Assembly: GCA_029856435.1 (NCBI GenBank)
Contig: JAHQXB010000149.1
Coordinates: 1-18,719 of the forward strand
Origin: Candidatus Jordarchaeia archaeon
Lineage (GTDB): Archaea; Asgardarchaeota; Jordiarchaeia; Jordiarchaeales; Jordiarchaeaceae
Reading direction: 5' to 3'
DNA length: 18,719 nt
The position numbers and the translations under genes were made by a program. Positions within the stretch are counted from its first letter, which is position 1. The number at the start of each line of letters is the position of its first letter. The notes under the pieces were generated by a model. It worked only from the letters and a program-made list of their open reading frames with translations. It searched no databases and was not told the origin of the DNA. Below, in pieces: positions 14,411-15,276 of the stretch.

Positions 14411-14518
14411 GCGGCTGTAGTCTAGCCTGGTTTAGGACCCAGGCCTTCCAAGCCTGTTACCCGGGTTCGAATGAAAAAGGAAGGAAGCTTCTTTCCGAAA
14501 TTCCCGGCAGCCGCACCA
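14411..14518 (+). tRNA. tRNA-Gly(TCC) with a 30-nt intron at 59/60; CCA encoded
   Basis: Acceptor GCGGCTG/CAGCCGC, D-stem GTCT/GGAC, anticodon stem CAGGC/GCCTG with TCC at 14447-14449, T-stem CCGGG/CCCGG. Spliced length is 78 nt. Confidence 0.95.
14472..14501 (+). other. tRNA-Gly intron, position 59/60, strict BHB
   Basis: Outer helix GGG/CCC, central helix TTCG/CGAA, bulges AA^T and AT^T, inner helix GAAA/TTTC. Confidence 0.92.
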
Positions 14519-14663
14519 AACCTACTTTTACTAAGCATAAGAATAGGAGTAAAGACAGAAATGTTTCAAGTAGGGCCTAGATCTGATTGAAAATAAACTG
14601 TTAATGAACTTGTAGAAAAAACAAAAATAGGGATGTTATGTGGTGCCGTCGGCCGGATTTGAA

Positions 14664-14693
14664 GTCGCCTTCTGCCAGGGACTCTGACAGCAT
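14664..14693 (-). other. tRNA-Phe intron 3 (30 nt), position 53/54, relaxed BHB
   Basis: Central helix CGCT/GGCG, bulges GG^A and AC^T, inner stem CTGTCAG/CTGGCAG. Confidence 0.88.
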
Positions 14694-14716
14694 CCAGCGA
14701 CAATCGGATCTTCAGT

Positions 14717-14747
14717 TTCGCCTTCCGTCAGAAAACTCTGACAGCAT
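14717..14747 (-). other. tRNA-Phe intron 2 (31 nt), position 30/31, BHB
   Basis: Outer helix AG/CT, central helix CGTC/GGCG, bulges GG^A and AA^A, inner stem CTGTCAGA/TCTGACGG. Confidence 0.88.
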
Positions 14748-14769
14748 CCGACGCTCTCCCGGGCTAAGC

Positions 14770-14793
14770 TTGTCGCTATTTTTTGCGAATAGT
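14770..14793 (-). other. tRNA-Phe intron 1 (24 nt), position 9/10, relaxed BHB
   Basis: Central helix GTCG (exon 4-7)/CGAC, bulges TA^A and AA^G, inner stem CTATT/AATAG, no outer helix. Confidence 0.85.
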
Positions 14794-14848
14794 TACGACG
14801 GCACCTGGGAGAATTTGGGCGACGGCAAAAACAAGTTTTTTTCACAAC

Positions 14849-14862
14849 TTATTAAATCTTTT
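14849..14862 (-). promoter_or_regulatory. Putative BRE/TATA promoter of tRNA-Phe
   Basis: On the minus strand, AAAAGA followed by TTTAATAA (14856-14849), just downstream of the tRNA-Val 3' end. Confidence 0.5.
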
Positions 14863-14877
14863 GTTTTTTTCTTGGGT

Positions 14878-14985
14878 TGGTGGGCGAGGCAGGATTGTCA
14901 GATATAGTGTCCAGAGCACTATACCTTTTGAACCTGCGACCTCCGCCACGTCAAGGCGGTGTCATGGCCGCTAGACTACTCGCCC
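14878..14985 (-). tRNA. tRNA-Val(GAC) with a 32-nt intron at 59/60; CCA encoded
   Basis: Acceptor GGGCGAG/CTCGCCC, anticodon stem CCGCC/GGCGG with loop TTGACGT, T-stem GCAGG/CCTGC. Spliced length is 76 nt. Confidence 0.94.
14895..14926 (-). other. tRNA-Val intron, position 59/60, BHB with a U-C mismatch in the central helix
   Basis: Central helix TTCA/TGAC, bulges AA^A and AA^T, 9-bp inner stem GGTATAGTG/CACTATATC. Confidence 0.9.
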
Positions 14986-15008
14986 TTTTTAGTGTTAACC
15001 TTTGTATC

Positions 15009-15030
15009 GTTTAAAATAATTAAGTTTTTC
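15009..15030 (-). promoter_or_regulatory. Putative BRE/TATA promoter of tRNA-Val
   Basis: Minus strand GAAAAACTTAATTATTTTAAAC, ending about 24 nt upstream of the tRNA. Confidence 0.5.
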
Positions 15031-15139
15031 GTGTGTGGGTTCTTGAAAGAGTAGGGGTTGAAGTGATTGCTGAATTTTTTGATAGGGGGATATATTTGTT
15101 TCGTGTTTTTTGTAGTAGTGTTTGGTGGACTCAGCGGGA

Positions 15140-15166
15140 GTTTCACCTTTTGAGTTTTCTCTTGGT
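15140..15166 (-). other. tRNA-Ala T-loop intron (27 nt), position 59/60, strict BHB
   Basis: Outer helix GGG/CCC, central helix TTCA/TGAA, bulges AA^A and AC^T, inner CC/GG plus a GAG-AAAA-CTC hairpin. Confidence 0.92.
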
Positions 15167-15203
15167 TTTGAACCCGCGGCCTCCTGGCTGCAAACCAGGC
15201 GCT

Positions 15204-15225
15204 CTTGGCTTCCTTTTTTGGGAAT
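15204..15225 (-). other. tRNA-Ala D-arm intron (22 nt), best register 22/23, relaxed BHB
   Basis: Central helix TGGA/GCCA (3 bp plus A-G), bulges AG^A twice, inner stem TTCC/GGAA. A flanking AAGA repeat makes the register formally ambiguous, but the mature sequence is the same. Confidence 0.82.
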
Positions 15226-15276
15226 CTTCCACTGAGCTATGAGCCCACCTATCCATGTTAGAAGTGTTGGGTGGTA

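Follow-up and report, generated by a model that had tools for sequence, protein, structure and literature searches.

How did four clustered tRNA genes come to carry seven introns at non-canonical positions, and do these introns reflect recent insertion, long inheritance or protection against integrating elements? The genes, for glycine, phenylalanine, valine and alanine tRNAs, lie at positions 14411-15246 of the window, that is, the whole 18,719-nucleotide contig C27 of a Candidatus Jordarchaeia genome (G000; 3.54 Mb, 97.8% complete). The seven introns were delineated by reading of the sequence and by a bulge-helix-bulge (BHB) test of every possible excision. Very probably these are functional single-copy tRNA genes with BHB introns, whose intron load is normal for the lineage and mostly of vertical origin, with turnover at the DNA level added to it.

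The unspliced window yields no tRNA gene in ARAGORN searches (with or without the intron mode) or in Rfam at the gathering threshold. With the threshold relaxed, Rfam yields only weak partial matches for Val, Ala and Gly, and none for Phe. Excision of the candidate introns restores a canonical cloverleaf in all four genes, and ARAGORN then assigns the expected anticodons. A path search running from the 5' to the 3' acceptor strand, jumping across BHB-like candidates and checking every cloverleaf arm, has a single solution for each of the four genes. These solutions coincide with the models of the first-pass annotation, made from the letters alone: its four tRNAs, its seven introns with their positions and lengths, and the lack of introns at the canonical site 37/38 all hold. 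It was also right that the three introns at 59/60 (30, 32 and 27 nt) are mutually unrelated, as their alignment scores range from -0.12 to -0.20. All four genes have an encoded CCA, and each is the sole copy located in G000.

The BHB criterion demanded two 3-nt bulges at the splice sites, separated by a 4-bp helix, and at least one flanking helix. Five of the seven introns have the strict motif (four central pairs plus a flanking helix), and the Val 59/60 and Ala 22/23 introns form a relaxed class with three central pairs out of four. When excisions of the same length were slid along the same genes, only 3 of 663 (0.5%) satisfied the strict rule, so the motif is far beyond chance.

The genome encodes two EndA paralogs of 192 and 197 residues, each with an N-terminal PF02778 and a catalytic PF01974 domain and with 31% identity to each other. 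One of them is closest to the catalytic chain of the Aeropyrum (A. pernix) and Pyrobaculum (P. aerophilum) heterotetramers. Judging from these sequences, the splicing endonuclease is probably a two-paralog (alpha-beta)2 enzyme of broad specificity. Two-subunit endonucleases are known to cut relaxed motifs, and the presence of two paralogs, one of them heterotetramer-like, is consistent with this type. The archaeal tRNA-splicing endonuclease would cut the BHB introns out, and an RNA ligase would rejoin the exons.

In the entire G000 genome ARAGORN sees 2-4 tRNAs, and Rfam finds 6 above threshold. A census was seeded with acceptor stems followed by CCA, and genes were kept if ARAGORN accepted the spliced product. 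It covers about half of the expected tRNA set, so that the figures are indicative only; it misses genes that lack an encoded CCA, have introns in the acceptor stem, or have introns without a BHB-like motif. It contains 25 tRNA genes with 58 introns (2.32 per gene). All 25 genes are interrupted, 17 have two or more introns, and 50 of the 58 introns are non-canonical. Relaxed criteria for the acceptor stem added 59,279 seeds, which led to nothing but false positives, and the census stayed at 25 genes. The commonest site is 59/60 (14 genes); introns occur at 37/38 in 8 genes, at 22/23 in 6, at 53/54 in 5 and at 29/30 and 30/31 in 6. Given the first two of these counts, the occurrence of 59/60 introns in three of four neighbouring genes, and the lack of 37/38 ones, is unremarkable.

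Relatives are the same in this respect. In complete genomes of Atabeyarchaeia and Freyarchaeia, 92-95% of tRNA genes have introns, frequently at non-canonical positions and frequently with several in one gene (Valentin-Alvarado et al. 2024, PMC11291895). An October 2026 preprint reports 2.2-2.4 intervening sequences per gene for Freyrarchaeaceae and Jordiarchaeaceae, a strong enrichment of BHB motifs, above all in the T-arm, and numerous repeated gains (Goswami et al. 2026, bioRxiv 10.64898/2026.10.13.758758). The sites 22/23, 30/31, 53/54 and 59/60 each belong to the classical set of non-canonical intron positions in archaea (PMC4090602). The high intron load is the normal state of the lineage, not specific to the cluster, and is already published. 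The first-pass annotation had considered it noteworthy unless it proved ordinary in relatives and already described, and the census, together with the two reports, finds exactly that. The genome-wide census of intron positions that it proposed has been made in part, with these 25 genes.

The corresponding GTDB class comprises 11 species genomes in two families, six of them (G000 and G006-G010) in the genus of the window, g1. Genome G006 is the published complete Freyarchaeum genome, as its Val, Gly and Tyr genes have the coordinates listed in Supplementary Data 4 of the 2024 paper. Synteny of the Gly-Phe-Val cluster extends over G006, G008, G009 and G010; the Ala gene adjoins it in G008-G010 and lies elsewhere in G006. 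Across five congeners the exons are nearly invariant while the introns vary, and the Phe and Ala exons are identical among the four closest genomes.

The tRNA-Gly(TCC) gene has orthologs in G006, G008, G009 and G010. Its intron at 59/60 occurs in all five genomes that have the gene, and also in a more distant metagenomic lineage; the intron sequences have drifted strongly and are still recognisably related. In G006 the T-loop substitution G57A is matched by a change of CGAA to TGAA in the intron, on the pairing strand of the central BHB helix, which reads as a compensatory change in that helix.

The Ala introns at 22/23 and 59/60 are conserved in G008-G010. G007 has both of them and an extra intron at 53/54; a model with 53/54 in place of 59/60 was rejected, as inspection shows both. 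The 59/60 intron of this G007 gene, tRNA-Ala(TGC) (L009, G007:C422:1-229, minus strand), starts with TCCGCTGAG, a near-copy of the start of the 3' exon. The acceptor 3' strand of the same gene was not located after TCCCGCT, which may point to one more intron or to a damaged gene. The Ala gene of G006 (131 nt) has two introns according to the published table, at unmapped positions. The 22/23 site is also used in tRNA-Ala(CGC) of G000 and in Ala genes of the sister family.

The Val intron at 59/60 is present in G000, G008, G009 and a metagenome contig (L070), and it is exactly absent from G010 and G006, two of the six lineages. L070 is closest to G006 (84.5% identity), and its Val intron is identical to that of the window at 29 of 32 nucleotides; the intron thus occurs in both of the branches that part at the deepest split within the genus. 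Most likely, on this sequence comparison, it predates the genus and was precisely lost at least twice, or was re-copied. The Phe introns at 9/10, 30/31 and 53/54 are found in all five genomes with the gene, and a fourth, at 59/60, occurs in G006 and L070. Neither Phe nor Val was found in G007, probably owing to its fragmented assembly. A metagenome search with the Phe exon pattern gave 20 matches, most of them unrelated and many of them bacterial-type tRNA-Phe genes.

By their distribution and sequences, the 59/60 introns of Gly, Ala and Val read as old and vertically inherited, with ongoing turnover. The first-pass annotation had offered two alternatives for them, repeated independent gains or an old, diverged spread. 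The second is borne out (Gly and Ala introns in every readable relative, Val in four of six lineages), and independent recent gains are not.

One trace of turnover comes from the Phe gene. Its introns at 30/31 and 53/54 are paralogous in all five congeners in which the gene is assembled, and the duplication, previously called recent, is therefore not so. A more distant lineage (L066, L077, L081) has Phe introns at 30/31 and 59/60, and at neither 9/10 nor 53/54. This distribution is consistent with an origin of the 53/54 copy from the 30/31 intron prior to the diversification of the genus. Within genomes, the two copies have been homogenised. They differ at one site within G008 and at one within G009, and orthologous copies differ at 8-10 sites when these two genomes are compared with G006. 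Three alignment columns vary among the genomes and agree between the two copies in all five. The loops co-vary, with TTCC in both copies of G008 and CCCC in both copies of G009. In L070 one copy has the state T..G and its partner the alternative C..A, so that elsewhere one copy would have overwritten the other, in either direction. This pattern of concerted evolution is best explained by gene conversion, a mechanism that we infer from the aligned copies.

A second trace connects different tRNAs. All-against-all comparison of the 58 census introns (1653 pairs) produced three outlier pairs: the two Phe introns (score 0.58), the 59/60 introns of Val and Tyr(GTA) (0.44), and two Ala introns at 22/23 (0.31). 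No shuffled set out of 150 attained the Val-Tyr score, and among the 105 pairs of T-loop introns the one next in rank scored 0.23. The stem pattern ATAGTG...CACTAT following TTCRAA was searched for in the 11 genomes; it matches only in genus g1 and always at tRNA position 59/60, and a control pattern has no matches. The matches are in Val and Tyr of G000, in Tyr of G008, G009 and G010, and in Phe of G006. Hence the Val intron is not a singleton: it belongs to a family that occupies 59/60 of Tyr and, in relatives, of Phe. Identity between tRNA types within the family is 61-73%. BLAST of all 58 introns against the G000 genome revealed no donor copies elsewhere.

Tyr genes of G006 and G007 lack the 59/60 family intron, which was therefore gained in the clade of four close species. 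The Phe, Val and Tyr host genes have near-identical T-arms, GCWGG-TTCAAAT-CCKGC. The T-stem of Tyr in G007 is GCAGG/CCTGC, the same as in Val, and in the intron-bearing genomes it is GCTGG/CCGGC, the same as in Phe. This switch suggests a conversion tract that carried the intron. The preprint found almost no cross-isotype intron families in these archaea at an 80% threshold (bioRxiv 10.64898/2026.10.13.758758).

The history that best accommodates these data is as follows. Most of the seven introns probably predate the genus and were transmitted vertically, drifting fast in sequence while the exons and the BHB pairing were held constant. On this background, three kinds of turnover have probably acted. 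The Val 59/60 intron would have been lost precisely in two lineages; introns would have been copied between sites whose exon surroundings are nearly identical, as proposed for the ATAGTG...CACTAT family at 59/60 of Phe, Val and Tyr; and the two paralogous introns of the Phe gene would have undergone gene conversion. Which changes were gains and which were losses is our interpretation of the distribution. More tentatively, and as a suggestion that we consider slightly less likely than not, all of these events may have a common mechanism, ectopic gene conversion over short tracts, by which Freyarchaeia introns would come and go between sites of shared exon context: among Phe, Val and Tyr at 59/60, in the precise removal of the Val intron twice, and in the seeding of 53/54 from 30/31 in Phe with two-way conversion since.

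Several points weigh against this history or parts of it. The census behind the genome-wide figures is partial. The tree supports the order of the four closest species only weakly (69% bootstrap, conflicting site patterns), that of G010 in particular; loss and re-gain of the Val intron are indistinguishable for this reason. The identities within the 59/60 family, only 61-73%, extend over 32 nt, and much of them is due to a stem of 6-7 bp that the members share. A transfer of T-arm and intron from Phe to Tyr should have brought the 53/54 intron of Phe along, and its absence from Tyr weakens the conversion scenario. The relaxed BHB class, which includes the Val 59/60 and Ala 22/23 introns, also arises often by chance. 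Finally, removal of the introns from the RNA is deduced from sequence.

A different explanation, proposed by the first-pass annotation after Randau and Soll (2008), is that T-arm introns are kept since they break the tRNA 3' halves that serve as attachment (att) sites of viruses and plasmids. Protection of att sites is a hypothesis in the literature, mainly for split tRNA genes (PMC4033280), and several observations would suit it. Site 59/60 is the commonest one in G000, and an att site spanning a fast-drifting intron between fixed exons would be a moving target. The Freyarchaeum genome has no detected integrated elements (PMC11529989). The only tRNA-adjacent integrase of the class, a single case, is associated with a tRNA gene whose T-arm is uninterrupted: a frameshifted tyrosine integrase in G002, of the sister family (L060, G002:C7:38561-40668), lies about 1 kb 3' of a tRNA-Leu(TAA) gene with a D-arm intron. 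It lies at a contig end, and the locus is possibly an integrated element cut off there.

However, the selective agent has left no sign. A search for tyrosine recombinases (PF00589) found none in this genome and 0-2 matches per genome in the class, while all 14 control genomes have matches; integrases of the SSV type may escape this profile. The single PF00589 copy of genus g1 lies more than 1.5 kb from any tRNA gene, in a region whose synteny holds across four genomes, and looks like a chromosomal gene rather than a part of an integrated element. With the tRNA gene ends as BLAST queries, all matches were to other tRNA genes, and none was an att-like partial duplicate. Atabeyarchaeia have 18 integrated elements in spite of an equal richness in introns, and the att site described for them is a non-tRNA AT-rich motif (PMC11529989). 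Evidence of mobile elements is scarce in the vicinity of any tRNA gene and has no association with intron gains (bioRxiv 10.64898/2026.10.13.758758). Besides, att protection would leave the equally common D-arm and anticodon-arm introns unexplained. Integrases in the class are too few for a contrast between interrupted and intact tRNA genes, so the depletion test proposed along with the idea has no power here. Nothing in these data supports att protection, and we consider it very improbable.

Recent insertion of unrelated sequence into each gene independently, as the origin of the three 59/60 introns, is slightly less credible still. It agrees with the lack of any similarity among the three and with the many recent gains on terminal branches reconstructed for the class (bioRxiv 10.64898/2026.10.13.758758), but it conflicts with the occurrence of related Gly introns in each of the five congeners that have the gene and in a distant lineage, of the Ala intron in G007-G010, and of nearly the same Val intron across the deepest split of the genus. 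That the inserts are assembly artefacts or the genes pseudogenes, as the failure of standard tRNA finders might hint, is hardly believable at all, since the same interrupted genes recur in five independent assemblies (one of them closed and curated) and in JGI metagenome contigs, the exons are under strong constraint, a compensatory change is seen in a BHB helix, and each gene is the sole copy found for its anticodon in a nearly complete genome.

The Phe gene also has a bearing on published catalogues. The tRNA table of the complete Freyarchaeum genome (Supplementary Data 4, PMC11291895) lists 38 genes and no tRNA-Phe, and apparently also lacks His, Glu and Cys. A four-intron tRNA-Phe(GAA) gene is situated in this genome between the listed Val(GAC) and Gly(TCC) genes. 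It looks like a gene disrupted beyond recognition by tRNAscan-SE; such genes are invisible to the census of the preprint, as its authors state (bioRxiv 10.64898/2026.10.13.758758). As Phe genes with three or four introns escape both ARAGORN and Rfam, catalogues based on tRNAscan-SE may still undercount tRNA genes. The coordinates of this gene and of the other features are given in the table.

Table. Coordinates of the interrupted tRNA genes, their introns and the splicing endonuclease genes (window positions unless a genome and contig are named)
Feature	Location	Strand	Description
tRNA-Gly(TCC) gene	14411-14518	+	exons 14411-14471 and 14502-14518; encoded CCA; ARAGORN Gly(tcc) after splicing
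Gly intron	14472-14501	+	30 nt, 59/60; strict hBHBh': central helix 4 bp, outer 5 bp, inner 4 bp
tRNA-Phe(GAA) gene	14641-14802	-	four exons; encoded CCA; ARAGORN Phe(gaa) after splicing
Phe intron 1	14770-14793	-	24 nt, 9/10; HBh' type: central helix 4 bp, inner 5 bp, no outer helix
Phe intron 2	14717-14747	-	31 nt, 30/31; central helix 4 bp; paralog of intron 3
Phe intron 3	14664-14693	-	30 nt, 53/54; central helix 4 bp; paralog of intron 2
tRNA-Val(GAC) gene	14878-14985	-	encoded CCA; ARAGORN Val(gac) after splicing
Val intron	14895-14926	-	32 nt, 59/60; relaxed BHB: central pairs 3/4, outer helix 5 bp, inner 9 bp
tRNA-Ala(TGC) gene	15123-15246	-	G3:U70; encoded CCA; ARAGORN Ala(tgc) after splicing
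Ala intron 1	15204-15225	-	22 nt, 22/23; relaxed BHB: central pairs 3/4, inner helix 4 bp
Ala intron 2	15140-15166	-	27 nt, 59/60; strict BHB (4/5/2)
EndA paralog	G000:C104:1178-1756		PF02778 + PF01974
EndA paralog (second)	G000:C64:5764-6357		PF02778 + PF01974
tRNA-Phe(GAA) gene of G006	G006:C1:1547648-1547842 (L008:1710-1904)	+	four introns; between listed Val(GAC) and Gly(TCC)

Some observations concern the neighbourhood of these genes. The RpoG gene, located immediately upstream of tRNA-Gly, is most closely related to those of metagenome-assembled genomes titled Candidatus Freyarchaeota and Candidatus Jordarchaeia. A listed open reading frame of 89 amino acids (window positions 14638-14907, plus strand) overlaps in antisense with the Phe and Val genes; almost certainly it is spurious. 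The Phe leader contains a copy of the Phe acceptor strand (14820-14826). It is resembled by a duplication in the leader of tRNA-Tyr(GTA) in G010 (L042, G010:C4) and G009 (L043, G009:C135), where the first 11 nt of the gene (CCCGCAGTAAC) are tandemly repeated just upstream with a TTTA spacer; this duplication is absent from G000 and G008. Elsewhere in G000, the second EndA paralog is about 4 kb from a tRNA-Ile(GAT) gene on the same contig. The canonical 64-nt intron of tRNA-Trp(CCA) (G000:C39:710-773) contains GATGATGA and CTGA motifs, and by these motifs it may be a C/D-box guide RNA of the kind known from tRNA-Trp introns of other archaea.

The cluster is an ordinary member of a published phenomenon, and its main value is that of a checked example. 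The exact presence and absence of one intron, together with a family across three tRNA types, provides material for working out how introns are gained and lost, and two introns evolving in concert within one gene point to exchange between intron copies at the DNA level. The additions are modest (a cross-tRNA-type family, a precise loss, a concerted Phe pair and an unannotated Phe gene), and they bear on the question of how introns arrive.

Three known systems can be compared with this one. The protection by interruption of Randau and Soll (2008) has in common with it that the tRNA 3' half, the usual att target, is interrupted. However, that hypothesis was framed mainly for the split genes of Nanoarchaeum, and no integrase or att evidence for it was found in this lineage.

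The intron transposition in Thermoproteales (Sugahara 2008; Fujishima 2010, per PMC4033280 and PMC4090602) is the second. In both cases single genes contain multiple non-canonical BHB introns at 22/23, 30/31, 53/54 and 59/60, and the endonuclease is, here probably, of the broad-specificity kind. In Thermoproteales, similar introns also occur in different tRNA species, and the one family at 59/60 of Val, Tyr and Phe may be a counterpart. On the other hand, about 28% of the introns in Thermoproteales belong to cross-isotype families, whereas here there are 2-3 related pairs among 1653 and no large-scale pattern. Moreover, the related copies described here either share their tRNA position and sit in genes whose T-arms are near-identical, or reside inside one gene, and this points to homology-guided conversion rather than free transposition.

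The third system is that of Freyarchaeia and Atabeyarchaeia themselves (PMC11291895; bioRxiv 10.64898/2026.10.13.758758); the class is the same, and G006 is the genome published there. Shared features are the interruption of nearly all tRNA genes, more than two introns per gene, mostly non-canonical, with hot spots in the T-arm and D-arm, the BHB enrichment, the two EndA paralogs, and repeated gains and turnover. Three observations go beyond the published work: a tRNA-Phe gene missing from the table of a complete genome; a family of introns at 59/60 of Phe, Val and Tyr, whose identities fall under the 80% threshold of the preprint; and two paralogous introns that evolve in concert within one gene, which a test between tRNA types, such as that of the preprint, would not count.

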